Below, one piece after another: positions 1 to 27,766 of a stretch of DNA of 32,000 nt; the first letter of the stretch is position 1, and each line of letters starts with the position of its first letter. The notes under the pieces are model-generated. The model had not been told where the DNA came from. It did no database searches and saw nothing but the letters and a program-made list of their open reading frames with translations. This DNA is from Ruminococcus albus 7 = DSM 20455 (GTDB lineage: Bacteria; Bacillota; Clostridia; Oscillospirales; Ruminococcaceae). The DNA lies in NCBI RefSeq assembly GCF_000179635.2, contig NC_014833.1, forward strand, positions 2,850,001 through 2,882,000. Direction: 5' to 3'. The position numbers and the translations under genes are program-made.

Positions 1-704
1 ATATAATGTATGGTCCTGTTGAATTCGCTGATATTACCGAAATCTATTTTCAGCGATGTGCTAAGCTGTGCATTTCCATTGAAATCTTCATAAACGATCA
101 TTATACTGTAACTTGGTTCTGCACCCGGATAAACAACTGTTGATTTACAAAGGAGCATATGGTTCATGCCGGCTACCAGCTGACTTCCGAGATAAGCTAT
201 CGGACGGACATCTACACCTACACGACCGTCCATCGCCTTATTGAAAGCCGCAAGAACATCTTCATGGGCTGAAAGCGAAGTATCGCCGTCATTGACAGAG
301 TAGCCGCCGGTTGCACCTTCACTTGGGCTGTTCAATACCGTTGTTCTGCCGATGAATTCCGCATCGCCCTTGAGATCCTCATAGATGTATACAAGCTGAT
401 AAGAGGGCTTTGCCTTCGGTGCGACAGGCTTGACTTTGCATAACATACAGTAATTTGTTCCCGCAACGCACTGCCTTGCAAGTACTGCAACAGGGGTGTA
501 AGCAACTCCGTCGAGATATTTTAGCGCATTATCCAGTGCGGCAACAGCATCGGGATTGCTTTCAGGTGAAGTATCTCCCCTTACGACCTCCCAGCCGCCT
601 GCGACCTGCTCCGAAGCTTCGTGATATCCGTAACTTTCTCCTTTATCCTCTGCATTTGCTGCCAAAGCAGGCAGACAGCCTGCCATGCACATAACAGCGG
701 TCAT
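1..704 (-). CDS. Secreted protein / possible lipoprotein with tandem cystatin-like repeats (partial; 3' end runs off the left edge)
   Basis: The minus frame is open from ATG 704..702 to the window edge; it is absent from the ORF track because there is no stop in the window. My translation: MTAVMCMAGCLPALAANAEDKG... The N-terminus is hydrophobic and signal-like (AGC lipobox-like, ALA/ANA cleavage-like). Two ~90-aa repeats align well, each with GG[WY], a helix-like segment, Q-x-V-A-G (QCVAG nt 473..459, QLVAG nt 182..168), LCK, PSY and YED. The start codon is uncertain (see findings). Confidence 0.6.
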   Translation of the reverse strand, partial: MTAVMCMAGCLPALAANAEDKGESYGYHEASEQVAGGWEVVRGDTSPESNPDAVAALDNALKYLDGVAYTPVAVLARQCVAGTNYCMLCKVKPVAPKAKPSYQLVYIYEDLKGDAEFIGRTTVLNSPSEGATGGYSVNDGDTSLSAHEDVLAAFNKAMDGRVGVDVRPIAYLGSQLVAGMNHMLLCKSTVVYPGAEPSYSIMIVYEDFNGNAQLSTSLKIDFGNISEFNRTIHY

Positions 705-1052
705 ACCCGCTAGTGTACGCTTAATAACGTTGTGTTTCTTTTCCACTCTGATTACCTCCGTTTTCAATTGATCTTTTTACTACACCATAATACTGTCAGT
801 TTGTTCATCTGACACTGATCATTATATTACAATTTTTCAAACTACGCAAGCAGTTCGGCAGATTTTTTGATTATATCGGTAATAATTTGTGGAAAATAAA
901 CATTCAGTATAGAATAAGTTAGGAAAAGGTGACGAGTGTACACAGCAGCGAAAAGCCTTATATTTCCAGCATTTTTGATAACAGCAGACTTGCCGTCATG
1001 AAATATAATATATGAGTACACGTCCATTGTATCCTTGGTGTCTTTCAGTTAC

Positions 1053-1829
1053 CTATACATTATTTTTACGGTATTTTGACGGTGATACGCAGGCATATTT
1101 CTGGAATACTTTTGAGAAATAAGAATAGTCTGGATATCCGCATTTTTCAGATACCTCGATAACAGAAAGGTCAGTAGTGGTAAGCAGCTGTTTTGCATAT
1201 TCCATACGGCTGGTGAGTATATCCTTGGTACAGGGGATGCCGTAGCGCTGCTTGTAAAGACGCTGAAAATGAGATACGGACAAATTCAGCTTCTGTGCTG
1301 CCTGTGGTATGTTCCAATCTGCAGAAGGATCATCATATATCGCCTTGCGGATATTCTCCAGTTCGCTTTCGTACTGGGTATGACTGCACTTGTCATCAGG
1401 ATTTGAACTGCTCTTTATCTGCATGAATATAGCTTTCATAAGATACCTTAGGGTAGCATCCTTTTCGGTATCATCAGATCCAAACACATCAACACATATC
1501 CTGATAAGCTCGGAAACAACATCGCTGTTCAGATGTATTGGAGAATTTCGCACTATACCAAGGGAATCTATAAATTCGGAATCATCATCCTCAAGGTCGA
1601 ACCTTATCCAGTCATCAACATACTCCTCCCCTTCACCGTACAGTGCATGGGGATAGCAGCTTTCAACTACAAAAATAGTATTATTATCCACATTGTAGAT
1701 ATTGCTGCCCATACCTATGCGCGCCTTTGAACGCAAAAGAAGTATCTGCATACCGTGTATGCCGTTGGGTCTGTCCTTATAGAAGTCAGCAGGATGCTTG
1801 CTATGCCAGCCTAACATATATGCTTTCAT
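1053..1829 (-). CDS. AraC/XylS-family transcriptional regulator
   Basis: 258-aa ORF. The C-terminus has a double HTH typical of AraC (AAQKLNLSVSHFQRLYKQRYG...IEVSEKCGYPDYSYFSKVFQKYACVSPSKYR) and the N-terminus a cupin-like sensor region. SD AAGGTGGG lies 6 nt before the ATG. It is divergent from the PL11 gene. Confidence 0.9.
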   Translation of the reverse strand: MKAYMLGWHSKHPADFYKDRPNGIHGMQILLLRSKARIGMGSNIYNVDNNTIFVVESCYPHALYGEGEEYVDDWIRFDLEDDDSEFIDSLGIVRNSPIHLNSDVVSELIRICVDVFGSDDTEKDATLRYLMKAIFMQIKSSSNPDDKCSHTQYESELENIRKAIYDDPSADWNIPQAAQKLNLSVSHFQRLYKQRYGIPCTKDILTSRMEYAKQLLTTTDLSVIEVSEKCGYPDYSYFSKVFQKYACVSPSKYRKNNV

Positions 1830-1946
1830 AATGTACCCACCTTTTAGATATCATAGTGTTATTCTTTAATAACTTATATTTTTTGAACTTCTTCCCTATA
1901 GGGTATATCAATCGTCAACATTATTATATAATATCCTCCCCTGCAA

Positions 1947-1975
1947 TGTCATTAACTTTTTGCAACAAAATGACA
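1947..1975 (+). promoter_or_regulatory. Candidate operator: inverted repeat TGTCAT-N17-ATGACA upstream of the PL11 promoter
   Basis: TGTCAT at 1947..1952 and ATGACA at 1970..1975, 21 nt upstream of the -35. The same half-sites, spacing and distance recur at 5404..5432 upstream of the CE12 gene. Assignment to the adjacent AraC regulator is inference. Confidence 0.4.
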
Positions 1976-1996
1976 AATTTTTGATAGATTTCTACA

Positions 1997-2025
1997 TTGA
2001 AAAGAAAGTGTACAAATGGTAAAAT
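1997..2025 (+). promoter_or_regulatory. Sigma-A type promoter of the PL11 gene
   Basis: TTGAAA (1997..2002), a 17-nt spacer ending in TGg, then TAAAAT (2020..2025), giving an extended -10. It is conserved in the CE12 upstream copy. Confidence 0.55.
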
Positions 2026-2085
2026 GATATTACAAACTCACGACAACCCAAAACAGGTTAGTTTATCAGAATGGAGGACTTTCAA

Positions 2086-5000
2086 ATGAGTGGTATGACC
2101 AAAAAAATTGCCTCACTTGCAGCGTCGGTATTGCTTGCAGCAACATCGACAGTAGGTGCAGTGAGCAGCATCACAGCCAACGCTGCTTACGGTGTGGGCG
2201 GCAACGGAACTGCGATCATGGAATACCTTGACAGAGGTATTTATGCCGTTAAAAGCGGTAACGGTATGTTCGTAAGCTGGCGTTACAATGCTAACGATGC
2301 AGACAATGCCGAGTTCAGACTTTACCGCGACAACAAGCTGATCTACACAAGTAAATCAGGCGATGCAACTTCCTATCAGGACAACGGCGGCAGCACAAAT
2401 TCAAAGTACCGCGTTGACTGCGTATCAGGCGGAAAGGTAATAGATTCGCAGAACTGCAAATTCACATCCGGCAACAATTATTTCGACATCAAGCTTAACA
2501 GACCCGGAAGCCAGTATTCACCCAATGACTGTGTTGTAGGCGACGTTAACGGCGACGGACAGTACGAGATATTCCTGAAATGGGATCCCTCTAACCAGAA
2601 GGATAACTCTCAGGAGGGAAAGACTGACAATGTCTATATCGACTGCTATACACTGGAGGGAAAACAGCTCTGGCGTGTAGATCTGGGCAAGAATATCCGA
2701 GCAGGTCAGCATTACACCCAGATGTGTGTGGCTGACTTTGACTGTGACGGCAAGGCTGAACTCATAACAAAGACCGCTGACGGCACCAAGGACGGCAAGG
2801 GCAAGGTCATCGGCGATGGCAGCAAGGACTACCGCAACGGCAAGGGTTATATACTGGACGGTCCTGAATATATGACACTGTTTGACGGTCAGACAGGTGC
2901 AGCACTTGATACCATCGACTTCCCTGTTCCACGCGGCAAGGTTTCAGACTGGGGCGATAACTACGGAAACCGTGTAGACAGAATGAACAGCGGTATCGCT
3001 TATCTTGACGGCGTACACCCAAGTGCTATCTACGGCAGAGGCTACTACACAAGACTTACCTGGTCTGCAGTTGATGTAAGTAACAAGAAGCTGAAAGTCA
3101 GGTGGAAGTACGATTCGACCTTCAACAAATCCACTAAGGGCTGGGGCTGCGGCAACCACAATGTTATGGTAGCTGACTGCGATAACGACGGCAAACAGGA
3201 GATATTCACAGGTGCTAACTGCATTGATGACAACGGCAAGCTGCTGTGGTCAACAGGCGACCTTCACGGTGATGCTATGCACGTAGGCGACCTTATCCCC
3301 GACAGAGCCGGTCTTGAAGTATGGGAATGCCACGAGGATAAACCATACGGTGAAACTTGCTATGATGCAAAGACCGGTCAGAAGATATTCCACATAAACA
3401 ACAGCAAAGATACAGGACGCTGTGTAGCCGACAATGTATGGGCAGGCAGCAAGGGCGCAGAATTCTGGGGCGCTGCAGACGGTAATGTATACAATACTAC
3501 CGGCAAGAAGATAGGCGGAACAAAGCCTGCTCAGAACTTCCTGATCTACTGGGACGGCGACCTTGAGCGTGAGATCCTCGACGGCAACAAGATATCCAAG
3601 ATGACTGGTGCCGACAAGATCGACCGCATATTCACAGCTAACGGCTGCGGTTCAAATAACAGTTCCAAGAACAATCCCTGTATGACAGTTGACCTTTTCG
3701 GTGACTGGCGTGAGGAGCTGATACTCAGAACTGACGACAACACCAAGCTGCGTGTATGGTGCACAACCAATACCACCAAGGTACGTCTTACCACACTTAT
3801 GCATGATATGCAGTACAGGGCACAGAACTGCTGCCAGCAGAGTGCATACAATCAGCCTCCCCATGTAAGCTATTATCTGGGAAGCGATGCACCTATCCCC
3901 GCAAGACCCAAGATAAAGCTGAATAATAGTTATAATCCAGGTCCTAATCCAAACCCAGATCCTGATCCCGATCCTACACCAGATCCCGTAATACCCGAAA
4001 CTGACATCATCGACGGACAGGTATACACCTTCAAGAATGTGAACAGCGGACTTTACCTCTCAGTTGAAGGTGCAGCTGCAGCAAACGGCGCTAATGTCGA
4101 GCAGGGTAACGCTAACGGCAAGCAGGTACAGTTCAAGGCAGTTTCTGCTGGTGACGGATACTTCTATCTGGTATCACAGCTGGGTGACGGCAAGACCTAC
4201 GCAATTGATGTAAGCGGCAGACACACAGAAGATGAAACAAACATCGAGATATACGAATTCAACAAGGGCGACAATCAGAAGTTCAGGATAGACAAGAATT
4301 CTGACGGTACATACAGCATCCTCACCAAGATAACAAACGGCAATTCTGCACTTGACGTAAACGGCAAATCTACCAATGCAGGCGCAAACGTACAGCAGTA
4401 CACCTACAAGGGCAGCACAAACCAGAAATGGTATGCAGAGGCAGTTAAGCAGAACAACAACGATAATCCTCAGAACCCTCCCGTTGTTCAGACATCGGAT
4501 ATCACTGACGGACAGATCTACACTATCAAGAACCTCAACAGCGGACTTTACCTCTCTGTTAAGGGTTCAAATGCCGGAAACGGTGTAAATGTTGAACAGG
4601 CAGCTGCAAACGGTGCACAGAACAAGTTCAAGGCAGTTGCAGCAGGTGACGGATATTTCTATCTGGTATCTCAGCTGGGTGACGGCAATTCCTATGCACT
4701 TGATGTAAACGGCAGAAAGACAGAGGACGGAACTAATATCGAGATCTACACCTTCAACAAGGGTGAGAATCAGAAGTTCAAGTTCGTAAAGAATTCTGAC
4801 GGAACATACAGCATTCTTACAAAGATCACTGACGGAAAGTCTGCACTTGATGTAAACGGACAGTCCCGCGATGCAGGTGCAAATATACAGCAGTACACCT
4901 ACAACGGCGGCAATAATCAGAAGTGGTATGTTGAAACTTCTTCTACATCAGGCAATATCACTACAGGCAGCTATCCTGTGGTAACAAGCATCGAATACAA

Positions 5001-5238
5001 CGCACTTTATCATCAGTTCAAGATGAACTGGACATCCGTAAAGAACGCTGAAAAGTACGGTATCGCTGTATACCTCGCAGGCAAGTGGAGAGTTCAGACT
5101 TACACCAATGATACTACATTCACATCACCCAAGCTGAAGGCTGGCGACAGATACAGAGTACTCGTTGCTGCAAGAGTTGGCGGTCAGTGGGATCTCTCTG
5201 ATCTCAAAGAAAGATCTGTCATTATAAGTATCAAGTAA
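2086..5238 (+). CDS. Secreted rhamnogalacturonan lyase, polysaccharide lyase family 11 (YesW/YesX-like) with C-terminal CBM13-CBM13-Fn3-like modules
   Basis: Propeller-type motifs VGDVNGDGQYEI, VADFDCDGKAELI and VADCDNDGKQEIF are present. The block DLFGDWREELILRTDDNTKLRVW..TLMHDMQYR...YNQPPHVSYYLG matches my memory of B. subtilis YesW. Next come a Pro/Asp/Asn linker, two ricin-type beta-trefoil units (QxF/QxF/QxW; nt 4003..4440 and 4498..4935) and an Fn3-like module (4966..5235). I prefer ATG 2086 (GGAGG 8 nt upstream, homologous to the CE12 start) over the track start at 2071. Signal peptide MSGMTKKIASLAASVLLAATSTVGAVSSITANA. Confidence 0.9.
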   Translation: MSGMTKKIASLAASVLLAATSTVGAVSSITANAAYGVGGNGTAIMEYLDRGIYAVKSGNGMFVSWRYNANDADNAEFRLYRDNKLIYTSKSGDATSYQDNGGSTNSKYRVDCVSGGKVIDSQNCKFTSGNNYFDIKLNRPGSQYSPNDCVVGDVNGDGQYEIFLKWDPSNQKDNSQEGKTDNVYIDCYTLEGKQLWRVDLGKNIRAGQHYTQMCVADFDCDGKAELITKTADGTKDGKGKVIGDGSKDYRNGKGYILDGPEYMTLFDGQTGAALDTIDFPVPRGKVSDWGDNYGNRVDRMNSGIAYLDGVHPSAIYGRGYYTRLTWSAVDVSNKKLKVRWKYDSTFNKSTKGWGCGNHNVMVADCDNDGKQEIFTGANCIDDNGKLLWSTGDLHGDAMHVGDLIPDRAGLEVWECHEDKPYGETCYDAKTGQKIFHINNSKDTGRCVADNVWAGSKGAEFWGAADGNVYNTTGKKIGGTKPAQNFLIYWDGDLEREILDGNKISKMTGADKIDRIFTANGCGSNNSSKNNPCMTVDLFGDWREELILRTDDNTKLRVWCTTNTTKVRLTTLMHDMQYRAQNCCQQSAYNQPPHVSYYLGSDAPIPARPKIKLNNSYNPGPNPNPDPDPDPTPDPVIPETDIIDGQVYTFKNVNSGLYLSVEGAAAANGANVEQGNANGKQVQFKAVSAGDGYFYLVSQLGDGKTYAIDVSGRHTEDETNIEIYEFNKGDNQKFRIDKNSDGTYSILTKITNGNSALDVNGKSTNAGANVQQYTYKGSTNQKWYAEAVKQNNNDNPQNPPVVQTSDITDGQIYTIKNLNSGLYLSVKGSNAGNGVNVEQAAANGAQNKFKAVAAGDGYFYLVSQLGDGNSYALDVNGRKTEDGTNIEIYTFNKGENQKFKFVKNSDGTYSILTKITDGKSALDVNGQSRDAGANIQQYTYNGGNNQKWYVETSSTSGNITTGSYPVVTSIEYNALYHQFKMNWTSVKNAEKYGIAVYLAGKWRVQTYTNDTTFTSPKLKAGDRYRVLVAARVGGQWDLSDLKERSVIISIK

Positions 5239-5353
5239 TGATTCCTTCAACTGATCATTCTATTATTCATACAATCAACCTTCCTTAAATTATACACTAC
5301 ACCGAGAACATCCCATGTGGCAATACCACACGGGATGTTCTTGCTTATATATA
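4003..5353 (+). repeat. Copy 1 of a 1.35-kb near-identical direct repeat (CBM13-CBM13-Fn3-like coding cassette, stop codon, 3'UTR and terminator)
   Basis: I aligned it by eye against 6725..8084 and counted 8 substitutions plus one 9-bp indel. Identity begins at GACATCATCGACGG and ends after GCTTATATATA. Confidence 0.95.
5304..5353 (+). terminator. Rho-independent terminator of the PL11 gene
   Basis: Hairpin GAGAACATCCCATGTGG / CCACACGGGATGTTCTT (one mismatch, loop CAATA) followed by a T/A-rich tail. It lies inside repeat copy 1. Confidence 0.7.
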
Positions 5354-5403
5354 ACTTCCGGTATACAGGGTGTATCATTTGTCAGCATTATCCTGCAACA
5401 CTA

Positions 5404-5432
5404 TGTCATCAGCAATTTGCAACAAAATGACA
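5404..5432 (+). promoter_or_regulatory. Candidate operator: inverted repeat TGTCAT-N17-ATGACA upstream of the CE12 promoter
   Basis: TGTCAT at 5404..5409 and ATGACA at 5427..5432, 21 nt upstream of the -35. It is the paralogue of 1947..1975. Confidence 0.4.
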
Positions 5433-5453
5433 TATTTATGATAGGTTTCTACA

Positions 5454-5482
5454 TTGAAAAAAAAGTCCACAAATGGTAAAAT
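5454..5482 (+). promoter_or_regulatory. Sigma-A type promoter of the CE12 gene
   Basis: TTGAAA (5454..5459), a 17-nt spacer ending in TGg, then TAAAAT (5477..5482). It is the paralogue of 1997..2025. Confidence 0.55.
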
Positions 5483-5542
5483 AATATTACAAACTCAGAA
5501 CATCCGAAAATTGTTTGGATCATCAGAACGGAGGAGTATCAA

Positions 5543-7969
5543 ATGAGCAGTATAAACAAGAAAATTGCAGCGTTTGCCGCATCAATGGTGTTAGCTGCAA
5601 CTTCCGGTGCAGGCGTAATAAGCAGCATAAATACTAGTGCTGCCGGAAACGGACAGGCTGTAACAAATGTAAGCAAAAAATTTGACCTTGGTGCAAATGC
5701 TACCGGCGGCTTTACCACTGTCAAGGCAGCTGACAAGTATTCTGCAAACAAGGGCTACGGTTTTTCAGGCAACAATGTCAAAGACGTTGCAGCCTCAGGC
5801 AGAAACGAACTCAGCGACGCTGTACAATTCACAGGCAATACTACTTTCAATGCTGATGTTCCCAACGGTCTTTACAAGGTCAAGGTGACCCTGGGCAACA
5901 CCTCACGAACCAGCGTGTATATGGAAAATATGCTCCAGATCGTCAATATGACAGGCAACAACGCAGTTGATGAGATAATACTCCCTGTTACTGACGGTCA
6001 GCTGAATATACGTGCAGCCGCAGGCAAGGACGGCACTCCTTATTCCATAAGTGCTATCGAGATAAACAGGATATCCGACAAAGCTGTAATGCCCAAGACA
6101 GTATGGCTCTGCGGCGATTCAACAGTATGCAACTACTATCCTCTTACATCAAGCAACCAGGCAGGCTGGGGACAGATGCTCGGCAAATATCTGGGTAATG
6201 ATGTATACATAAGAAATATGGCAGCAAGCGGTGAATACGCTAAGGGCTTTGTTGACCACGGCAATTTCAACTGTATTGAAAAATACGGCAAGAGCGGTGA
6301 TACATTTATCATCTCTATCGGTATAAATGACGGTAAGTACTACAAAGGTGCTGAGTACAAGAAAGTAGTTACCGATATGGTAAAGAGAGCAAAGGCTAAG
6401 GGCATGGATGTCATCCTTGTGAAGCAGCAGGGACGCAAGGGCGATTATACACTCAAGCCACTGCTGAAGAGCAGATACTTCGCTGCTGAGCTGGATCAGA
6501 TAGCATCCGAACAGGGCTGCAAGATCATCGACCTGTTCACTCTCTGGCAGAACTACTGCGTATCTGTAGGCGCTTCAAAGGCTGATTCAATGTACATCGA
6601 CAACGTTCACCCCAACCGTACTGGTGCTGACAAGCTGGCTGAGCTGGTCGCATCCAAGATGGATAAGACAAATTCTTCTCCATCTAATCCTTCTACTCCG
6701 TCTGATCCGCCTACCTATACAACAGACATCATCGACGGACAGGTATACACCTTCAAGAATGTGAACAGCGGACTTTACCTCTCAGTTGAAGGTGCAGCTG
6801 CAGCAAACGGCGCTAATGTCGAGCAGGGTAACGCTAACGGCAAGCAGGTACAGTTCAAGGCAGTTTCTGCTGGTGACGGATACTTCTATCTGGTATCACA
6901 GCTGGGTGACGGCAAGACCTACGCAATTGATGTAAGCGGCAGACACACAGAAGATGAAACAAACATCGAGATATACGAATTCAACAAGGGCGAGAACCAG
7001 AAGTTCAGGATAGACAAGAATTCTGACGGTACATACAGCATCCTCACCAAGATAACAAACGGCAATTCTGCACTTGACGTAAACGGCAAATCTACCAATG
7101 CAGGCGCAAACGTACAGCAGTACACCTACAAGGGCAGCACAAACCAGAAATGGTATGCCGAGGCAGTTAAGCAGAACAACAACGATAATCCTCAGAACCC
7201 TCAGAACCCTCCCGTTGTTCAGACATCGGATATCACTGACGGACAGATCTACACTATCAAGAACCTCAACAGCGGACTTTACCTCTCTGTTAAGGGTTCA
7301 AATGCCGGAAACGGTGTAAATGTTGAACAGGCAGCTGCAAACGGTGCACAGAACAAGTTCAAGGCAGTTGCAGCAGGTGACGGATATTTCTATCTGGTAT
7401 CTCAGCTGGGTGACGGCAATTCCTATGCACTTGATGTAAACGGCAGAAAGACAGAGGACGGAACTAATATCGAGATCTACACCTTCAACAAGGGTGAGAA
7501 TCAGAAGTTCAAGTTCGTAAAGAATTCTGACGGAACATACAGCATACTTACAAAGATCACTGACGGAAAGTCTGCACTTGATGTAAACGGACAGTCCCGC
7601 GATGCAGGTGCAAATATACAGCAGTACACCTACAACGGCGGCAATAATCAGAAGTGGTATGTTGAAACTTCTTCTACATCAGGCAATATCACTACAGGCA
7701 GCTATCCTGTGGTAACAAGCATCGAATACAACGCACTTTATCATCAGTTCAAGATGAACTGGACATCCGTAAAGAACGCTGAAAAGTACGGTATCGCTGT
7801 ATACCTCGCAGGCAAGTGGAGAGTTCAGACTTATACCAATGATACTACATTCACATCACCCAAACTGAAGGCTGGCGACAGATACAGAGTACTCGTTGCT
7901 GCAAGAGTTGGCGGTCAGTGGGATCTCTCTGATCTTAAAGAAAGATCTGTCATTATAAGTATCAGGTAA
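5543..7969 (+). CDS. Secreted rhamnogalacturonan acetylesterase (SGNH/GDSL hydrolase, CE12-like) with an N-terminal beta-sandwich CBM-like domain and C-terminal CBM13-CBM13-Fn3-like modules
   Basis: SGNH blocks are present: LCGDSTV (block I, from about nt 6095), NMAASGE (II), SIGINDG (III) and DNVHPN (V). AGWGQMLGKYL is typical of RGAE-type CE12 enzymes. The signal peptide MSSINKKIAAFAASMVLAATSGAGVISSINTSA is paralogous to the PL11 one. C-terminal modules: CBM13 at 6725..7162 and 7229..7666, Fn3-like at 7697..7966. GGAGG lies 8 nt before the ATG. Confidence 0.85.
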   Translation: MSSINKKIAAFAASMVLAATSGAGVISSINTSAAGNGQAVTNVSKKFDLGANATGGFTTVKAADKYSANKGYGFSGNNVKDVAASGRNELSDAVQFTGNTTFNADVPNGLYKVKVTLGNTSRTSVYMENMLQIVNMTGNNAVDEIILPVTDGQLNIRAAAGKDGTPYSISAIEINRISDKAVMPKTVWLCGDSTVCNYYPLTSSNQAGWGQMLGKYLGNDVYIRNMAASGEYAKGFVDHGNFNCIEKYGKSGDTFIISIGINDGKYYKGAEYKKVVTDMVKRAKAKGMDVILVKQQGRKGDYTLKPLLKSRYFAAELDQIASEQGCKIIDLFTLWQNYCVSVGASKADSMYIDNVHPNRTGADKLAELVASKMDKTNSSPSNPSTPSDPPTYTTDIIDGQVYTFKNVNSGLYLSVEGAAAANGANVEQGNANGKQVQFKAVSAGDGYFYLVSQLGDGKTYAIDVSGRHTEDETNIEIYEFNKGENQKFRIDKNSDGTYSILTKITNGNSALDVNGKSTNAGANVQQYTYKGSTNQKWYAEAVKQNNNDNPQNPQNPPVVQTSDITDGQIYTIKNLNSGLYLSVKGSNAGNGVNVEQAAANGAQNKFKAVAAGDGYFYLVSQLGDGNSYALDVNGRKTEDGTNIEIYTFNKGENQKFKFVKNSDGTYSILTKITDGKSALDVNGQSRDAGANIQQYTYNGGNNQKWYVETSSTSGNITTGSYPVVTSIEYNALYHQFKMNWTSVKNAEKYGIAVYLAGKWRVQTYTNDTTFTSPKLKAGDRYRVLVAARVGGQWDLSDLKERSVIISIR

Positions 7970-8084
7970 TGATTCCTTCAACTGATCATTCTATTATTCA
8001 TACAATCAACCTTCCTTAAATTATACACTACACCGAGAACATCCCATGTGGCAATACCACACGGGATGTTCTTGCTTATATATA
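6725..8084 (+). repeat. Copy 2 of the 1.35-kb near-identical direct repeat
   Basis: See copy 1. This copy carries an extra CAGAACCCT unit (about 7192..7209), adding QNP to the inter-CBM linker. Confidence 0.95.
8035..8084 (+). terminator. Rho-independent terminator of the CE12 gene (placed between convergent CE12 and cysE)
   Basis: Sequence identical to the PL11 terminator hairpin. The cysE stop lies 15 nt further on, on the opposite strand. Confidence 0.7.
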
Positions 8085-8098
8085 CTGAAAAAACTGTA

Positions 8099-9043
8099 TC
8101 ATATCATATAGAACCAGGATGTGTCCTCCTCGAAATCCACTCTCTCCACAGGAGGGAAAGCATCGTAATTATACCTGAGTTCCTGACTCTTCACACTGAC
8201 TTTCGCTCCATCCGGAACAGACCGCGTTATGAATGCGTTACCGCCTATAACTACGTCCTTACCTATGACAGTATCTCCGCCCAGTATAGAAGCTCCCGAA
8301 TATATTGTCACATTGTCCTCGATAGTAGGATGACGTTTTCTGCTTTTAAGCGACTGTCCTCCTCTTGTGGACAAAGCACCTAAAGTCACACCCTGATATA
8401 TCTTTACGTTATTGCCTATGACGGTAGTTTCACCGATCACTATACCTGTACCGTGATCTATGAAAAAATATTTACCTATCGTAGCACCCGGGTGAATATC
8501 TATACCTGTTTCATTATGGGCATACTCAGTCATCATACGAGGTATTATCGGAACATTCAGCAAAAAGAGCTCATGGGCTATCCTGTTTATAAGTATTGCA
8601 AAAAGCCCCGGATATGAGTATATTATCTCATCCTCGCTGTAAGCAGCAGGATCACCGTCATAAGCCGCCTGAACATCTGTAAGTATATACTCCCTTATCT
8701 TGCGCAGACGCTTTATGAATTCAAGGGATATCGCTCTCGCCTTTGCCAGTATCTCATCGTTGTTTTCGCCTTCATTACCAAGTACGATCGTTATCTGTTT
8801 TGTCAGCTTGAAGATCACATCCTCCAAAAGCATTGAAAGATTACTTTTAAGTGTATATACCTTGATATCCCTGTTTCTGAAATAACCGGGAAATATTATT
8901 TTTCTCAGGCTGCTGAGTATATTTATTATAGCCTCTTTATCAGGGTGGTTGAATATCTTAAACTCCTCAGCACCATTATCATTATCGTAATCAGCAAGCA
9001 GATCATTGACAATACCATTAACGGTCTCTTCAATATTACTCAT
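8099..9043 (-). CDS. cysE: Serine O-acetyltransferase (long form)
   Basis: The 314-aa ORF has the left-handed beta-helix hexapeptide region DIHPGATIGKYFFIDHGTGIVIGETTVIGNNVKIYQGVTLG...IEDNVTIYSGASILG and an N-terminal helical SATase-type domain. SD AAGGAG is present. Confidence 0.9.
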   Translation of the reverse strand: MSNIEETVNGIVNDLLADYDNDNGAEEFKIFNHPDKEAIINILSSLRKIIFPGYFRNRDIKVYTLKSNLSMLLEDVIFKLTKQITIVLGNEGENNDEILAKARAISLEFIKRLRKIREYILTDVQAAYDGDPAAYSEDEIIYSYPGLFAILINRIAHELFLLNVPIIPRMMTEYAHNETGIDIHPGATIGKYFFIDHGTGIVIGETTVIGNNVKIYQGVTLGALSTRGGQSLKSRKRHPTIEDNVTIYSGASILGGDTVIGKDVVIGGNAFITRSVPDGAKVSVKSQELRYNYDAFPPVERVDFEEDTSWFYMI

Positions 9044-10086: not shown

Positions 10087-11901
10087 ATGATAGTTCACAA
10101 AACATTGAAACGCTTAGCTGCCGCATCGCTGGCAATTACTCTTGTTGGTGGTGCAGTACCAGCAAACATAGGGGCATTTGACCTGTCACGCAGTACTTCT
10201 GTTGTAGCAAGTGCCGAATCGGAGATCAGCATTTCAAATGCAACCGTAACAATGAAAGCGCACTCAGCCAAAGTTCAGTCCGTAGAACTTAACGGCACAA
10301 AATTACAGAAAGACATTGATTACACCGTTTCTTATTCCCAGACGGATTCCGACGGAAAAATCACTGAATTTTCTGCGCCCCCGAAACAAACAGGCAACTA
10401 TAATGCTGTTATCACGGGTATAGGTGACTATCAGGGTGTTATAACAAGATCGTTTGATATCGTCGGAAGCGGTTATGAGGGTATTTCCATAATTGATGGC
10501 AGTCAGGGCTCTGATACACCTTCAAATGAACACCTATTTCTTATATTTGATAAAAATCGAAACACCAAAATGTGCAGCAAAGTTAACCGCGCGGGCATTT
10601 ATGCCAATAGAGACAGTGACTGGCTGCTGTTTGAGGCTGATACTCCTTTTGCTATCCATAACTATGTTCTGACTACCGCAAATGATACTTCACACTACAC
10701 GGGCAGAAACTGGAAAAGCTGGCGTATCTACGGAAGCAACAGCGAAGCGGCAGCAGATTATACAGCCTCCTATACCGAACATAAAGTTACAGACATAGAT
10801 GAAGATATCTGGTCACTTGTACAGCAGGTAACAGACGATACTGTTTTACAGCCTGTGAATTATACGGAATTTGCCTATGCTGTTCCTCATAACAAAAACA
10901 AGTATAAATATTATCTGCTTATTCTTGATGATATCGTAGATACCTCCAATAATATCCAGCAGATGTCCGAAATTGAGTTCAATGCCGCTCTGCCTGTCTC
11001 CGTTACCCATGTTGATGCAGTACCTGCCGACTGCCTTAACGCAGGCAATATCGAACACTGGTACGACGAGTACAACGATAAGTATTATCTCGATGAAGAC
11101 GCACAAAACGAGGTAGACGAGGAAGACGTCATTATCCCCGCGTCAGGTCACAGCTACGGCAGACCCGAATGGAATTATGACGCTAAAAACCAAACCGTAA
11201 CGGCAACTTTCAAGTGTGAGAACTGCGAAGATGTACAGACTGTTGATGCGACCATCACTTCAAAGACTACCAGCCCGACATACGTAAAAGAAGGTAAGAT
11301 AGTTTATACCGCTTCAGTAAAACTTAACGGTCAGACCTACACCACAAACAAGACAGTGATCATAGACAAGCTCACCTACACTCCTCCTACGATCACCAGC
11401 TTAAAGGGCTATGGCGCTGTAAAACTCCAGTGGACTGATGTAAAGGGAGCTGAAAAGTACGCAGTTGCAGGTTTTATAAGCGGCAAATGGAGAATATTAG
11501 ATCAGGGTGAGGGTACTTCATACGTGCTTAAAAACCTCCTGGCTGGCAAGGAATACAAGGTATGTGTAGCAACAAAACTGAACGGCGAATGGTTCACCGA
11601 CCCATCCAATGCTATCGTAGTTACACCGAAACTCAAGCCTGTAAAGGACAACCCCGCTGTTACATTTGAAAAGGGCAAGAACACTGTCAAGCTCAGCTGG
11701 GATGCTGTTGAAGGTGCTGAAAAATATGCAGTTGCAGGATATATAAACGGCAGATGGAAGATACTTGCTGAGGGTGTCGGCAATTCATATGTGCTCAAAG
11801 ACCTCAAAGCCGGCTATCAGTACAAGGTGGCTGTATCCGCGATGTTCAACGGAAAATGGAACACAGATCTCAACAATGCGATAACTGTGACCCCGAAATA
11901 A
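10087..11901 (+). CDS. Secreted multidomain surface protein: Ig-like region, discoidin (F5/8 type C)-like domain, Cys-containing GHSYG..W repeat region, two Fn3-like modules
   Basis: The signal peptide ends ..VVASAES. The discoidin-like signature is WLLFEADTPFAIHNYVLTTANDTSHYTGRNWKSWRIYGSNS. Two C-terminal modules (about 11380..11631 and 11647..11898) share L.W..V.GAEKYAVAG...GKW....G..YKV.V with the C-termini of the PL11 and CE12 proteins. GGAGG lies 8 nt before the ATG. Confidence 0.75.
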   Translation: MIVHKTLKRLAAASLAITLVGGAVPANIGAFDLSRSTSVVASAESEISISNATVTMKAHSAKVQSVELNGTKLQKDIDYTVSYSQTDSDGKITEFSAPPKQTGNYNAVITGIGDYQGVITRSFDIVGSGYEGISIIDGSQGSDTPSNEHLFLIFDKNRNTKMCSKVNRAGIYANRDSDWLLFEADTPFAIHNYVLTTANDTSHYTGRNWKSWRIYGSNSEAAADYTASYTEHKVTDIDEDIWSLVQQVTDDTVLQPVNYTEFAYAVPHNKNKYKYYLLILDDIVDTSNNIQQMSEIEFNAALPVSVTHVDAVPADCLNAGNIEHWYDEYNDKYYLDEDAQNEVDEEDVIIPASGHSYGRPEWNYDAKNQTVTATFKCENCEDVQTVDATITSKTTSPTYVKEGKIVYTASVKLNGQTYTTNKTVIIDKLTYTPPTITSLKGYGAVKLQWTDVKGAEKYAVAGFISGKWRILDQGEGTSYVLKNLLAGKEYKVCVATKLNGEWFTDPSNAIVVTPKLKPVKDNPAVTFEKGKNTVKLSWDAVEGAEKYAVAGYINGRWKILAEGVGNSYVLKDLKAGYQYKVAVSAMFNGKWNTDLNNAITVTPK

Positions 11902-12047
11902 ATAACCTGTCCCTAGTTCAGTACACAGGACAATTAGGGTAATATAAGCTTTAAACGGATAACAGTCCATGCTCCAACTAAAGGAGTTACGGTCGTGATA
12001 TACCGATCTCGGCTGATCATCAATTACCCGAATATAACGAAACATAC

Positions 12048-12085
12048 AAGCGGCAGGGACAACAGTCCTTTGCCGCTTTATTTAT
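12048..12085 (+). terminator. Rho-independent terminator
   Basis: AAGCGGCAGGGAC / GTCCTTTGCCGCTT with loop AACA and one bulge, followed by TATTTAT. It lies about 150 nt after the stop of the 604-aa gene. Confidence 0.6.
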
Positions 12086-12133
12086 CGAAATGCTGATTTG
12101 TTGGATCAATGTTTGCTTTATGTTGATAGGTAA

Positions 12134-12162
12134 TTGACGTATCGGTGAAGATGCTGTATAAT
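12134..12162 (+). promoter_or_regulatory. Sigma-A type promoter of the 374-aa gene
   Basis: TTGACG (12134..12139), a 17-nt spacer, then TATAAT (12157..12162). Confidence 0.5.
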
Positions 12163-12294
12163 AAATAATAAGGACAAGTAATATGCTTACTCTTGAAATC
12201 GGCGATGACCATGCTCTTTAGGAGCATCGGATCCATTTATAAGAAATAACATAATTACAGGAAATCTGACAGCTTTTGAAAAAAGGAGAAATCA

Positions 12295-13419
12295 ATGGAT
12301 TATAAGGTTTTAGATGATTTTGAAAAATTGAGTGATGTAAGCCCTGAGACTATAAAAAAATATGAGGATAAACTGCCTTCCGAGTGGATCGAGTTTTGGA
12401 AAGAATATGGATACGGTTCGTTTATGAACGGATATTTCAGGGTGATCGATCCTGATGTTTACAAGGATTTTTATAAAGAAAGCACTTTGAGATTATACAA
12501 ACAGGAACCTGTTCCTGTTATAGTTACTGCTTTTGGAGATATTATTGCTTTTATAACTACTTTTAAAGATGGTAAGTTGAAATGGAGTCTGGAGTGTGCG
12601 TATTACAGATATATGCGTAACATTTTTTTCCTGCCGTCGGTAGATCATTTCTTTAAAGGTCTATGCAGTCTCGAGGCTTATGGTAATGAAGAACAATATA
12701 CGTTCATAAAGTACTCCGAGGCAGTAGACAAACTCGGGGAACCAGAATACGATCAGTGTTTCGGATATGATCCGATATTGACAAAGCGGAGCAAAGAAAA
12801 AATGAGTGATCTTCGTATCGTAGATACAAAGGATTACTTAAAGGCAGTGTTTGAACAGAATGGACGTATCGAAGATCTTATGCCCGACGGAAAAACTATA
12901 GATGTTTCATATGCTGCAAAAAAAGAAAAGAAACCCAAGAGAGTCATCGTTGACAACCCTTATGAGTTAAAGCCGATCAATGAGCCTGCACTTAGATTTG
13001 ATAATTTCAATTTCAAATTATGTATCATACAGGTGCTTATGTATGAAAAGGAGCTTCTGAAACCTAAATTCGATATATATGAGTTTGCCAAATGCTATCC
13101 GCCCCGTGAGATAAATATTGATGATGAAGGCTATGATCCGATCAAACCTGCCATCGAGTATTTTAAGAAACTAGAGATCCCGTCATCTCTTGCCCACGAG
13201 ATCGAAGAGATCATTATGGATGGCGGCGATGATATCTACGGTCAGATCTATCCGTTCTGGGACGGCGAAGATGATTATTTTGACCTGAAAAGAGTTTCAG
13301 ATGCAGAGCTTTCTCAATTTCCGAATCTAAAGCTCATACAATTGATAAACAGCCCTGAAAATCTAAGCAAAACGCTGATAAGCAGGCTAAAGAAACATGG
13401 GATCGAAATAAAGGAATAA
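12295..13419 (+). CDS. Hypothetical protein; the N-terminal half resembles GAD-like/DUF1851 (Tdi1-type immunity) proteins
   Basis: 374-aa ORF with SD AAGGAG. The N-terminal segment LPSEWIEFWKEYGYGSFMNGYFRVIDPDVYKDF....VPVIVTAFGDIIAF recalls GAD-like plus DUF1851 immunity-type proteins. The C-terminal half (..DIYGQIYPFWDGEDDYFDLK..FPNLKLIQL) recalls another immunity-associated family. Both assignments are from memory only. Confidence 0.6.
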   Translation: MDYKVLDDFEKLSDVSPETIKKYEDKLPSEWIEFWKEYGYGSFMNGYFRVIDPDVYKDFYKESTLRLYKQEPVPVIVTAFGDIIAFITTFKDGKLKWSLECAYYRYMRNIFFLPSVDHFFKGLCSLEAYGNEEQYTFIKYSEAVDKLGEPEYDQCFGYDPILTKRSKEKMSDLRIVDTKDYLKAVFEQNGRIEDLMPDGKTIDVSYAAKKEKKPKRVIVDNPYELKPINEPALRFDNFNFKLCIIQVLMYEKELLKPKFDIYEFAKCYPPREINIDDEGYDPIKPAIEYFKKLEIPSSLAHEIEEIIMDGGDDIYGQIYPFWDGEDDYFDLKRVSDAELSQFPNLKLIQLINSPENLSKTLISRLKKHGIEIKE

Positions 13420-13620
13420 TATACAGAATGAATATGATATACCTCCTGCGCTTAGACTTGATTAAGCGGATTCCCTCTATTGCAGGACGTCCGTTCTTTT
13501 ATAATTCACCCCTTTTGTTTAGCAATTATTAGGAGAGTTAACCGTTACTGCAAAGACCACTTTATCTTTATTGACAAGCTAGAACACATATTCAAATCAA
13601 AAAGCCAACCAAATAAACCA

Positions 13621-13670
13621 TACAAAACAAAAAAGCTCTGAAACAACGTATTCTCGTTATTTCAGAGCTT
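13621..13670 (-). terminator. Rho-independent terminator ending the rRNA operon
   Basis: On the minus strand, AAGCTCTGAAA (13670..13660) pairs with TTTCAGAGCTT (13643..13633) and is followed by TTTTTGTTTTG. Confidence 0.85.
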
Positions 13671-13679
13671 ATAACTAAG

Positions 13680-13752
13680 CGCCACCTGTTGGACTCGAAC
13701 CAACGACCCTGCGGTTAACAGCCGCATGCTCTACCGACTGAGCTAAGGAGGC
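13680..13752 (-). tRNA. tRNA-Asn (anticodon GTT)
   Basis: Hand-folded cloverleaf GCCTCCT-TA-GCTC..GAGC-A-TGCGG-CTGTTAA-CCGCA-GGGTC-GTTGG-TTCGAGT-CCAAC-AGGTGGC-G. There is one U-U mismatch in the acceptor stem and no encoded CCA. Confidence 0.9.
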
Positions 13753-13789
13753 AGATACGCCAAAACACTCCGAAGAGTGTTTTGGGAGA

Positions 13790-13905
13790 GCCGGCGACAA
13801 CTTATTTTCCCGGGCGGTCGCCCGCCGAGTATTTTCAGCGAAGATGAGCTTAACTTCTGTGTTCGGCATGGGAACAGGTGTGACCTCATCTCAATGATCA
13901 CCGAC
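13790..13905 (-). rRNA. rrf: 5S ribosomal RNA
   Basis: It contains the conserved GGTCACACCTGTTCCCATGCCGAACACAGAAGTTAAGC. Helix I closes as GTCGGTGA / TCGCCGGC. The ends are good to a few nt. Confidence 0.9.
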
Positions 13906-13921
13906 TATAAATTAGAGGTAA

Positions 13922-13945
13922 CAGTAACCTCAAAATTGAATAATG
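13922..13945 (-). other. 23S processing-stem half (trailer)
   Basis: The 24-nt segment is complementary to 16907..16930 with one G-U and one mismatch. This is the expected RNase III-type stem bracketing 23S. Confidence 0.7.
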
Positions 13946-13972
13946 AAGGGTAATTTAAGGATTAACATAATT

Positions 13973-16819
<2,847 letters not shown>

Positions 16820-16906
16820 GTTATCCTTAATGTTATGCTGATTGTAGTTTTCCCGACTAATTTCTTTTAGTCGTTTTCCTCATTTGCATTACTTTTAATA
16901 TTGCTT

Positions 16907-16930
16907 CATTATTCAATTTTCAAGTTACTG
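16907..16930 (-). other. 23S processing-stem half (leader)
   Basis: Complementary to 13922..13945. Confidence 0.7.
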
Positions 16931-16951
16931 TCAGAGGACTTTTGTCCTCAG

Positions 16952-17025
<74 letters not shown>

Positions 17026-17104
17026 AAAAATCGCTAAAGCGATGTTTTGGCAACGAGTTTTAGTTCTCGTCTCAGTTCAGCTGTGTGATTGCGTCCTCGT
17101 CCCA

Positions 17105-17180
17105 TGGTGGAGATGAGGAGGATCGAACTCCTGACCCCCTGCTTGCAAAGCAGGTGCTCTCCCAGCTGAGCTACACCCCC
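17105..17180 (-). tRNA. tRNA-Ala (anticodon TGC), CCA encoded
   Basis: GGGGGTG-TA-GCTC-AGCTGGGA-GAGC-A-CCTGC-TTTGCAA-GCAGG-GGGTC-AGGAG-TTCGATC-CTCCT-CATCTCC-A-CCA. The G3:U70 Ala identity pair is present. Confidence 0.95.
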
Positions 17181-17224
17181 GTTTAAGGGACTCTTATGCT
17201 CTTTTAAAGATACCTTGCGGCATC

Positions 17225-17241
17225 CTCAAAATTGAACAACC
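17225..17241 (-). other. 16S processing-stem half (trailer)
   Basis: Complementary to 18973..18990, with a 14-nt perfect core AAAATTGAACAACC / GGTTGTTCAATTTT. Confidence 0.65.
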
Positions 17242-17303
17242 AGCTGTTTCCACCACTTGCTGACCGGAGATTTTTTTGAAGTTTTTTAAACTTCGGTTCT
17301 CCA

Positions 17304-18818
<1,515 letters not shown>

Positions 18819-26687: not shown

Positions 26688-27215
26688 CTATACCACCTTG
26701 GTATAATACTGTTCCAGAATACCAAGTACTTCTTTTCTCTTGTCTTCGGGAACTGTTATTTTCAAATCCTGCCCGCGCTTTGCACTGAATATCACATTAT
26801 CATCTTCAAGGGAATAGCTGTACTTTTTACGATCGTATTTCTGTCCGCCAAGATAGAAACAGTCATTGCAAAGCCTGAACTCGTTATACTTGAAATAAAC
26901 TACCAGCCAGTGTATCAAAACAATAACATAGAATCCCATCAATGTACCACACGATGATATCATCTCTATATTTTTAAGTGTCCATTCAGCAACATCACGT
27001 CTGTATAATCCCATAAAAACACCAGTTACTAATAACAATATTCCTAAAATTGACATCCACAGTGCTTTCACAAATTCGGGATACTTATGCCTGAACGACA
27101 CGCCGCCTGCCTTCTCAGCCTCTTTCATTCCTTTGCTTCTCTTCGATATATCTACTGTAATACAGATGAGAAAAACGATCAAAAGCAACGGCATGATATA
27201 TATCAATATTTTCAT
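26688..27215 (-). CDS. Membrane protein, paralogue B (3 predicted TM plus a conserved C-terminal soluble module)
   Basis: 175 aa. The C-terminal block YNEFRLCNDCFYLGGQKYDRKKYSYSL..VIF....ITVPEDKRKEVLGILEQYYTK is shared with the upstream gene. Confidence 0.7.
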   Translation of the reverse strand: MKILIYIMPLLLIVFLICITVDISKRSKGMKEAEKAGGVSFRHKYPEFVKALWMSILGILLLVTGVFMGLYRRDVAEWTLKNIEMISSCGTLMGFYVIVLIHWLVVYFKYNEFRLCNDCFYLGGQKYDRKKYSYSLEDDNVIFSAKRGQDLKITVPEDKRKEVLGILEQYYTKVV

Positions 27216-27220
27216 ACTAT

Positions 27221-27766
27221 CTATCCATTCTCACTTTTAGTATAATGCTTTCCAAGAATACCCAGTACTTCTTTTCTCTTCTTTTCGGGTACTGTTATAC
27301 GCTTTTCGATACGACCCGATCTGAATACCACTTCTTCGCCGTCAAGAGAATAGGTGTAATGCTTCTTTTCGTACTTGGCACCGCCAAAGTAGAAACAATT
27401 CGCACACAGCCTGAATTCGTTATACTTCATATACTGCTGTATCGAGAATATGAAGATCATTACATAGATCACCAGTGCTATCCATAAAAAGATGTCTGCT
27501 TTTTTAGCATTTGACCAAGCATCGGCATTCGATTTTGACCTGCCTATTTTCGACATCAGCAGTCCGGACGTAGTCAATATGAATGCAATACTGTTCCAAA
27601 CCAGACTTAACAGCCCGCGGTCTTTGTGTTTGAAAACTACACCGCCTGCCATCTTTGAACTCTCAGTTACTGTAAAGCGTTTCGATGATGACACTATCAT
27701 ATAGATAATATCCACGATTGCCAGCACCAGCAGGCTAAACGCTATTATCGTATATGCCTTTATCAT
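27221..27766 (-). CDS. Membrane protein, paralogue A (3 predicted TM plus a conserved C-terminal soluble module)
   Basis: 181 aa. The C-terminal block is YNEFRLCANCFYFGGAKYEKKHYTYSL..VVF....ITVPEKKRKEVLGILGKHYTK. The ATG lies 1 nt after the Nudix stop codon. Confidence 0.7.
   Translation of the reverse strand: MIKAYTIIAFSLLVLAIVDIIYMIVSSSKRFTVTESSKMAGGVVFKHKDRGLLSLVWNSIAFILTTSGLLMSKIGRSKSNADAWSNAKKADIFLWIALVIYVMIFIFSIQQYMKYNEFRLCANCFYFGGAKYEKKHYTYSLDGEEVVFRSGRIEKRITVPEKKRKEVLGILGKHYTKSENG

Follow-up and report, generated by a model that had tools for sequence, protein, structure and literature searches.

A 32,000-nt stretch of the Ruminococcus albus 7 (DSM 20455) genome (NC_014833.1, positions 2,850,001 to 2,882,000; hereafter, the window, with positions counted from its first base) contains two adjacent genes on the plus strand whose products are predicted to act on rhamnogalacturonan. 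Gene 1, or open reading frame (ORF) 1, encodes a lyase of family PL11, and gene 2 (ORF2) encodes an esterase of family CE12. Both proteins end in two ricin/CBM13 carbohydrate-binding modules (CBMs) followed by a C-terminal domain of ~95 aa, and the DNA encoding this tail, with its stop codon and 3' untranslated region (UTR), forms a pair of near-identical direct repeats. The origin of the two genes and of their common tail is the subject of this analysis.

Two enzymes, predicted to be secreted, with a common C-terminal tail

Gene 1 was assigned to PL11 by its Pfam matches (RGL11_C, E = 2.5e-198; RGI_lyase, 8e-22), and it matches the PDB structures 4CAG (1e-173), YesX (2e-164), and YesW (4e-162). 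Its longest ORF begins at ATG 2071, but this codon overlaps the GGAGGA ribosome-binding site (RBS); therefore, the start is likelier to be ATG 2086 (MSGMTKK...), which lines up with the start codons of orthologues and of ORF2. The translation of gene 2 contains the conserved blocks of an SGNH hydrolase (GDS Ser193, GxND Asn262, and DxxH Asp353/His356), consistent with membership of CE12, and matches AGA-YXIM_GBD (6.5e-43) and Lipase_GDSL_2 in Pfam as well as YxiM (2O14, 9e-92) and the rhamnogalacturonan acetylesterase RGAE (1DEO, 9e-8) in the PDB. Its galactose-binding-like domain is of the YxiM type, known as CBM35 in the ruminococcal literature, and the R. albus 8 orthologue of the esterase is annotated as CE12 (Dassa et al., 2014; PMC4081043). 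An earlier note on this DNA, made without database searches, had proposed the same PL11 and CE12 assignments, which are borne out by these matches; its view that both enzymes act on rhamnogalacturonan is supported at the level of sequence. Both catalytic parts are under purifying selection, with ratios of nonsynonymous to synonymous divergence (dN/dS) of about 0.04–0.05 against R. albus 8, and both ORFs are intact in the window and in the sources of two metagenomic contigs, L081 and L082, that are described below.

The tandem units of the tail were identified as CBM13 by Pfam (RicinB_lectin_2, 1e-44 and 3e-48; Ricin_B_lectin, 1e-22), and their PDB matches include the xylanase CBM13 modules 1KNL and 1ISV and also 3VSF. 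The two units are 75% identical to each other at the protein level and 78% identical as DNA. The corresponding units of R. albus 8 (locus L009, 12917–13360 and 13406–13852) are 88.7% identical to each other as DNA and only about 78–80% identical to either unit of the window, which points to either an independent duplication or internal homogenization of the R. albus 8 pair.

No Pfam model exists for CBM37, and the C-terminal domain was recognized by its relatives instead. It is 45–62% identical to the extreme C termini of R. albus GH5, GH10, GH26, and leucine-rich repeat proteins, in some of which such CBM37-type C termini occur in tandem. Its identity is 66% to the last module of the orthologue in R. 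albus 8, a module that has been labeled CBM37 (Dassa et al., 2014; PMC4081043). CBM37 modules are described as peculiar to R. albus, as binding several polysaccharides, and as attaching enzymes to the cell surface (PMC4081043). The match of the domain to Pfam fn3 is below threshold (E = 0.016; 15.9 bits against a 25-bit cut-off). An AlphaFold2 model, built on 24 homologues (pLDDT 86), was compared with the PDB by Foldseek, and the top matches were all fibronectin type III (FnIII) domains, with query-normalized TM-scores mostly of 0.55–0.73. The domain is thus best described as CBM37 by family and as Fn3-like by predicted fold: the label "Fn3-like" in the earlier note holds for the fold but not for the family. 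A homology search with the whole tail cassette found no protein that exceeded 76% identity over 38% of the query, and it served only for recognizing CBM37-type C termini. Exact look-ups of both full proteins, with ORF1 also read from 2086, matched no record. Elsewhere in the window, a secreted protein of 604 aa (10087–11901, plus strand) has an N-terminal part without a Pfam family and ends in two tandem CBM37-like modules, 35–39% identical to the CBM37 of the cassette, a sign that this genome uses the module more than once.

The tails and the upstream regions are both duplicated

The tail repeats were detected by a repeat search and BLASTN and then aligned globally. They are ~1.35 kb long (4003–5353 and 6725–8084) and lie 2.7 kb apart; 3999–5353 and 6721–8084 are 98.7% identical with the gap counted. 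Within the repeats there are exactly eight substitutions (4272, 4275, 4437, 4815, 5103, 5133, 5205, and 5234), six of which are synonymous when read as codons; the other two are D734E and the final K1055R. The single gap is a 9-bp indel that gives copy 2 an additional PQN unit in the linker between its CBM13 modules. Identity is sharp-edged, beginning and ending at the repeat limits to within 1–2 bases. The 115 bp after the stop codon (5239–5353) are identical in both copies, although this is unremarkable in itself because only ~0.7 substitutions would be expected there at 0.6% divergence. This region contains a 41-nt hairpin with a folding energy of -27.7 kcal/mol (z = -7.1 relative to shuffled sequences), which is probably an intrinsic terminator; a simple terminator scan did not call it, its 3' tail being T-poor, and Rfam gave no match in the 3' UTR or the intergenic region. 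The earlier note had described these direct repeats by eye, including the class of each substitution, the abrupt onset of identity, the unsubstituted ~115-bp non-coding tail with its hairpin, and a CBM13 pair roughly three-quarters identical, and every one of its counts proved correct.

A second paralogous block, missed by the earlier note, lies upstream of the two genes. It spans the promoter, the 5' UTR, and the signal peptide, with ~71% identity over ~300 nt and 82.5% over its best 166 nt (1946–2111 and 5403–5568). Each copy contains the motif TGCAAYAAAA-N3-CA-N7-GATAG, ~10 nt upstream of the predicted -35 element. The same motif occurs exactly once upstream of each of 13 loci in related genomes that carry a fused PL11-CE12 gene (described below; positions include L009 9762, L011 9877, L012 9870, and L013 9890), twice in the window and twice in L081, with no further occurrence in the 1.46 Mb of fetched loci. 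The motif is a candidate operator of the AraC-family regulator encoded divergently beside gene 1. The features of the locus are listed in Table 1.

Table 1. Features of the PL11/CE12 locus, with positions in the window
Feature	Position	Strand	Parts	Evidence or remarks
AraC-family regulator	1053–1829	-		Divergent to gene 1; Pfam HTH_18/HTH_AraC; synteny anchor
Promoter, candidate operator, and 5' UTR, copy 1	1886–2085	+	Motif TGCAACAAAATGACAAATTTTTGATAG 1961–1987; predicted -35/-10 pair TTGAAA-17-TGnTAAAAT 1997–2025; RBS GGAGGA 2074–2079	Alignment with copy 2, promoter scan, motif scan
Gene 1	2071–5238	+	Signal peptide; PL11 rhamnogalacturonan lyase about 2218–3906; Pro/Asp/Asn linker 3907–4002; CBM13; CBM13; CBM37	
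Repeat copy 1	4003–5353	+	CBM13a 4003–4446; linker 4447–4488; CBM13b 4489–4941; CBM37 4942–5235; stop 5236–5238; 3' UTR; putative terminator hairpin 5303–5343	Repeat search, BLASTN, alignment, codon reading, folding, structure matches
Promoter, candidate operator, and 5' UTR, copy 2	5353–5542	+	Same motif 5418–5444; same predicted -35/-10 pair 5454–5482	Aligned from its first base with 1886 onward
Gene 2	5543–7969	+	Signal peptide 5543–5644; putative relic GNGQAV of the PL11 N terminus 5645–5662; CBM35-like galactose-binding domain 5678–6064; SGNH/CE12 esterase 6113–6631; linker; CBM13; CBM13; CBM37	
Repeat copy 2	6725–8084	+	CBM13a 6725–7168; linker with added 9-bp unit 7190–7198; CBM13b 7220–7672; CBM37 7673–7966; stop 7967–7969; 3' UTR; putative terminator hairpin 8034–8074	BLASTN, alignment, codon reading

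Relatives carry a single fused gene at the same locus

Related loci were collected by scanning species-representative genomes, a set that does not include the genome of the window, with ORF1 and were then searched by tblastn with the separate modules. The fetched loci numbered 115 in the whole analysis, including R. albus 8 (L009), R. albus AR67 (L011), and Ruminococcus sp. XPD3002 (L012). Fused genes, in which the CE12 module follows the PL11 module within 400 nt, were present in 24 of these loci. In R. albus 8, AR67, XPD3002, and many metagenome-assembled genomes, PL11 is followed after about 60–150 nt by CE12 and then by one or two CBM13 units, with a CBM37 after the CBM13 in R. albus 8 and AR67. 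The fused gene was a single ORF of 1205–1593 aa in all 14 loci for which ORFs were read. The architecture at the syntenic locus is signal peptide-PL11-CE12-CBM13(x1–2)-CBM37, and the R. albus 8 protein is listed as PL11-CE12-CBM13-CBM13-CBM37 (PMC4081043, Table 5). Longer fused variants of 1357–1593 aa (L024, 9956–14737; L028, 520–4593; L031, 3888–8207) have a second, distant CE12-like SGNH module (25–30% identity) after PL11-CE12, and a distant CE12-like module separates PL11 from the CE12 orthologue in L030 and L032.

In R. albus 8, AR67, XPD3002, and L013, the fused gene is preceded by an AraC gene, and window positions 1060–1829 gave BLASTN matches of 70–79% to the DNA immediately before the fused gene in L009, L011, L012, L013, and L083–L087. 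This conserved upstream neighbor indicates that the window and the fused-gene loci are orthologous. The closest comparison is with the fused protein of R. albus 8 (ZP_08159623; 1380 aa), which has the same modules in the same order and the same cis motif. Amino acid identity between the two is 92% for PL11, 90% for CE12, about 80% for the CBM13 units, and, as noted above, lowest for CBM37. The difference is that R. albus 8 has one ORF, whereas the window has two, and each of these comes with a promoter copy, signal peptide, tail, and terminator of its own. Window positions 2055–3927 align with L009 9972–11845 and 5650–7954 with 11881–14131, so relative to the fused gene, ~1.7 kb (3928–5649) are inserted between PL11 and CE12.

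These data do not support the suggestion in the earlier note that a cassette had moved onto two enzymes with unrelated cores. The cores correspond to the N- and C-terminal halves of one fused protein, and the orthologous loci of relatives point to a single ancestral ORF, not to module transfer. The tail common to both genes would then have been inherited from duplication of the whole fused gene, in the same way as the promoter and signal peptide.

Evidence for fission of a duplicated fused gene

The content of the insert is informative. It begins with a linker ending in DPVIPET, which resembles the PL11-CE12 linker of the fused proteins (DPVQPIT, taken as ancestral), and continues with a tail copy including stop codon, 3' UTR, and hairpin, then with the upstream-region copy from 5353, and finally with a signal peptide. 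Behind this signal peptide, the sequence of the CE12 protein is AAGNGQAV-TNVSKKFD. The CE12 part of the fused protein begins with TNVSKKFD, and GNGQAV is the counterpart of the N-terminal residues of mature PL11 (AAYGVGGNGKAI in R. albus 8; GNGTAI in ORF1). Such a PL11 relic in the CE12 protein requires a fused ancestor because copy 2 must once have held PL11. In addition, the end of the terminator directly abuts the start of the promoter copy, which is the product expected from head-to-tail duplication of a whole unit and would place the tandem-duplication junction at about 5352|5353.

Neighbor-joining (NJ) trees were used to assess the direction of change. In the CE12 tree, 199 of 200 bootstraps pair the window clade (the window, L081, and L082) with the fused R. 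albus 8 gene as its sister; in the PL11 tree, the window clade is sister to the fused genes of AR67, L013, and L087 (171/200). In both trees, the clade lies within a larger group of fused genes, and all nearest neighbors of known context are fused. The split form was seen only in the window, L081, and L082, which represent one species, whereas fused forms cover lineages with PL11 identity down to about 82%. The nesting of the window clade, the restriction of the split form to one species, and the PL11 relic together support fission as the direction of change.

We conclude that the two genes very probably arose by fission of a duplicated bifunctional gene and that their tails have since been kept identical by gene conversion. 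The ancestor would have been one AraC-linked gene encoding signal peptide-PL11 lyase-CE12 acetylesterase-CBM13-CBM13-CBM37. The whole unit, from promoter to terminator, would have been duplicated in tandem, after which, as the relics in both genes indicate, the upstream copy lost CE12 and the downstream copy lost PL11 by in-frame deletions at the linkers. Duplication followed by complementary loss would explain why each daughter has the same promoter and operator, a signal peptide, and the same targeting tail with its terminator. The site patterns described below indicate that the 1.35-kb tails were thereafter homogenized repeatedly by intrachromosomal gene conversion; the short promoter and signal-peptide copies diverged freely.

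Evidence for concerted evolution of the tails

Divergence is strongly heterogeneous along the duplicated unit. Synonymous divergence between the copies (dS) is 0.026 in the tail, and the proportion of differing synonymous sites (pS) in the signal peptide is 0.72, which is saturated; tail synonymous divergence is roughly 50- to 100-fold below that of the co-duplicated signal-peptide region. Against R. albus 8, dS is about 1.1–1.25 for each of the tail, PL11, and CE12, and orthologous tails are 77% identical. The ~71% identity of the promoter/signal-peptide copies is similar to that between the window and R. albus 8 over the same columns (64–71%). Had the tails diverged at the rate of the rest of the unit, roughly 20% divergence (about 270 differences) would be expected, in contrast to the eight seen. 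Identity in one part of a duplicated unit that extends to silent and non-coding sites is characteristic of concerted evolution.

A metagenome scan provided comparison between strains. It returned two independent contigs from close relatives, both with the split arrangement: L081 (ODAI010307982.1) is 98.7% identical to window positions 1–6843 and L082 (ODAJ012072051.1) is 98.75% identical to 5326–8446. Copy 1 is bridged into unique flanking DNA on either side by L081, as is copy 2 by L082. The comparison covered four tails, two of them from the window (w1 and w2), one from L081 (B1), and one from L082 (C2). At five substitutions (4146, 4204, 4214, 4740, and 5061) and at a 9-bp indel in the 3' UTR just past the stop codon (5240–5248), w1 equals w2 but differs from B1, which equals C2. 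No paralog-specific site was found within the repeat across strains in this comparison; the only one, at 4002, lies one base beyond it. The adjacent sites 4272 and 4275 show a crossed pattern. The number of differing sites is 9 for w1-w2, 16 for w1-B1, and 18 for w2-C2, so paralogs are closer within the genome than orthologues are between strains, with B1 and C2 taken from two assemblies. Such a pattern is typical of concerted evolution and implies that at least one conversion has taken place since the divergence of strains that now differ by about 1%. The direct repeats, 2.7 kb apart, probably recombine within the chromosome in RecA-type conversion, which would be confined to the tails as the only long stretch of homology.

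Alternative explanations

Four rival explanations were considered and rejected, the first of which is recent module transfer: the tail and terminator would have been copied not long ago without any conversion, and the 0.6% divergence would simply be their age. The earlier note had offered recent transfer or ongoing conversion as two options. High, uniform identity that ends exactly at the homology limits speaks for transfer, but the split arrangement with both tails is common to strains ~1% apart in unique DNA, paralogs differ at fewer sites (8–9) than orthologues (16–18), and five substitutions and a 9-bp indel are common to both copies within each lineage. Moreover, the promoter/signal-peptide block that abuts the tail base for base is already synonymously saturated, so a later insertion exactly at their border would have to be a coincidence. 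The strain patterns and the low tail dS therefore favor the conversion half of the earlier proposal, and transfer alone, which the strain pattern contradicts, is very unlikely. Purifying selection by itself hardly comes into question: the two tails probably have a function and are constrained, with a tail dN/dS of 0.15 against R. albus 8, but constraint explains neither the synonymous sites (dS of 0.026 compared with about 1.1 to the orthologue) nor the 115 bp of non-coding DNA, nor the 3' UTR indel common to both copies in each lineage. An assembly artefact, arising either through double placement of a single real tail or through faulty resolution of a collapsed repeat, is next to impossible. 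Near-identical 1.35-kb repeats do break short-read assemblies, and L081 itself ends 123 nt into copy 2. However, the copies are distinguished by eight substitutions and a 9-bp indel, they continue in frame from different linkers and catalytic modules, and L081 and L082 independently bridge copy 1 and copy 2 into unique flanks, so both copies are real, as the earlier note had assumed. The window also runs through a complete rRNA operon (13679–18817, minus strand: 16S, tRNA-Ala, tRNA-Ile, 23S, 5S, and tRNA-Asn), which suggests a repeat-resolving assembly, either long-read or finished.

The last of the four reverses the polarity, with the split genes as ancestral and the single ORFs formed by deletion of the tail-terminator-promoter-signal-peptide block. 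Such a fusion takes one deletion where fission takes three events, and bacterial fusions are generally commoner than fissions, but in both trees the window clade is nested among fused genes, the split form has the narrow distribution described above, and a PL11 N terminus behind the CE12 signal peptide is expected only if copy 2 once contained PL11; we give this order of events very little chance of being correct. A variant of the fission itself was also weighed, in which the second copy was a diverged fused allele from another Ruminococcus lineage, inserted in tandem, with reciprocal degeneration and later conversion of the tails. The promoter/signal-peptide copies are as diverged as inter-species orthologues and the CE12 half is sister to R. 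albus 8 while the PL11 half groups with AR67 and L013, as a foreign copy would predict. However, promoter copy 2 is no closer to R. albus 8 than copy 1 is (64–67% compared with 68–71%) and is simply more diverged from everything, PL11 identity to R. albus 8 (92.3%) and to AR67 (92.5%) is practically equal, and tail conversion would still be required; we consider this variant unlikely. Several observations weigh against fission of a duplicated gene followed by conversion. No tandem full-length duplicate, one-sided deletion, or other split lineage was found in the 115 loci, so the three-step path is deduced rather than observed, although this absence is weak evidence because few genomes have been sampled between the species of the window and R. 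albus 8. The closest fused sister lineage is not the same in the PL11 tree as in the CE12 tree; the two gene halves may have somewhat different histories, perhaps because Ruminococcus lineages have exchanged parts of the fused gene by recombination. Because two separate assemblies supplied L081 and L082, B1 and C2 are perhaps not from one genome, and no external contig by itself includes both full copies. Finally, a CTTATAT microhomology at the presumed borders of the duplication (1873–1879 and 5344–5350) is suggestive but not flush on the left and, as weak evidence, was not relied on.

Comparison with known systems

R. flavefaciens FD-1 encodes a PL11-Doc-CBM35-CE12 protein (orf03451; PMC4081043, Table 4). 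It has the same PL11 and CE12 modules as the R. albus locus, whereas the R. flavefaciens loci L001–L008 have PL11 with CBM13 only, and these variants indicate frequent gain and loss of modules in the family. The R. flavefaciens enzymes are anchored by dockerins instead of the CBM37 of the window, and no duplicated near-identical tails were seen in them. The catalytic folds of the window enzymes match those of YesW and YesX (PL11) and of CE12 esterases (YxiM-type fold, 2O14) from Bacillus subtilis, in which the two activities reside in different proteins, as they do in the window. The Bacillus enzymes are not known to have a CBM13-CBM13-CBM37 tail or to derive from a recent fission.

The Drosophila monkey-king genes, reportedly described by Wang et al. 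in 2004, are said to follow a fission model of duplication and then complementary degeneration. The likeness lies in the duplication of a whole gene and the loss of a complementary part from each copy; a fused gene at the orthologous locus of outgroups, duplicated ends, and the relics GNGQAV and DPVIPET in the daughters were all found here. Unlike the monkey-king genes, the window is bacterial, both copies retain the N-terminal signal and the C-terminal tail, and the common part evolves in concert. Bacterial paralogs such as tufA/tufB and the rRNA operons undergo concerted evolution by RecA-dependent gene conversion. As in those systems, paralogs of one genome resemble each other more than orthologues of different strains do, identity extends to silent and non-coding sites, and it ends at the limits of homology, but in the window, only a sub-genic module and its terminator are homogenized and the catalytic parts are non-homologous. 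Literature searches on gene conversion of CBM modules and on bacterial fission by duplication and degeneration returned only general reviews and one pilin example. Modular rearrangement of carbohydrate-active enzymes (CAZymes), fission by duplication and degeneration, gene conversion between paralogs, and the fused architecture are all known already; what is new is a well-resolved instance.

Functional implications

The arrangement suggests that the lyase and esterase are secreted separately under common regulation. The identical CBM13 pairs would target both enzymes to the same pectic structures and the CBM37 modules to the cell surface or to polysaccharide, while the esterase, by analogy with the known roles of CE12 and PL11, would deacetylate rhamnogalacturonan I for the lyase. 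Separate secretion with identical targeting would preserve co-localization while physically uncoupling the two activities.

It is possible, but on balance doubtful, that the fission was adaptive rather than neutral and produced a "virtual fusion" through identical tails and an AraC-linked operator, upheld by concerted evolution. If so, co-targeting and co-regulation were retained, conversion was favored by selection, and stoichiometry, folding, and secretion were freed from the constraints of a 1380-aa polypeptide. Recombination between the direct repeats could probably remove the CE12 gene in a single step, and, on the adaptive hypothesis, such losses could lead to strain heterogeneity; that so easily deleted a gene persists in three sources points to selection.

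As a bacterial case of gene fission, in which a gene is duplicated and each copy loses a complementary domain, the locus is unusually legible: the fused ancestral form, both copies of the promoter, operator, and signal peptide, the leftover residues, and the duplication junction can probably all still be read. It also suggests that gene conversion can homogenize a sub-genic module and terminator while divergence reaches saturation in the remainder of the duplicated unit. For the biology of CAZymes, the comparison implies that multifunctional and single-function architectures interconvert at one locus in the R. albus group and that the part held constant is the set of targeting modules, CBM13 and CBM37. 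Because near-identical module tails break short-read assemblies, two genes of this kind could be mistaken for unrelated enzymes with a mobile module.

Other genes in the window

An ORF adjoining the rRNA operon (12295–13419, plus strand) has GAD-like, Tdi1_C (immunity protein of the type VI secretion system), and DUF6892 domains and looks like an immunity protein. Beside a NUDIX gene, two tandem paralogous ORFs of 175 and 181 aa without a Pfam family (26688–27215 and 27221–27766, minus strand) have in common a 62-nt stretch that is 85% identical (26698–26759 and 27237–27298).

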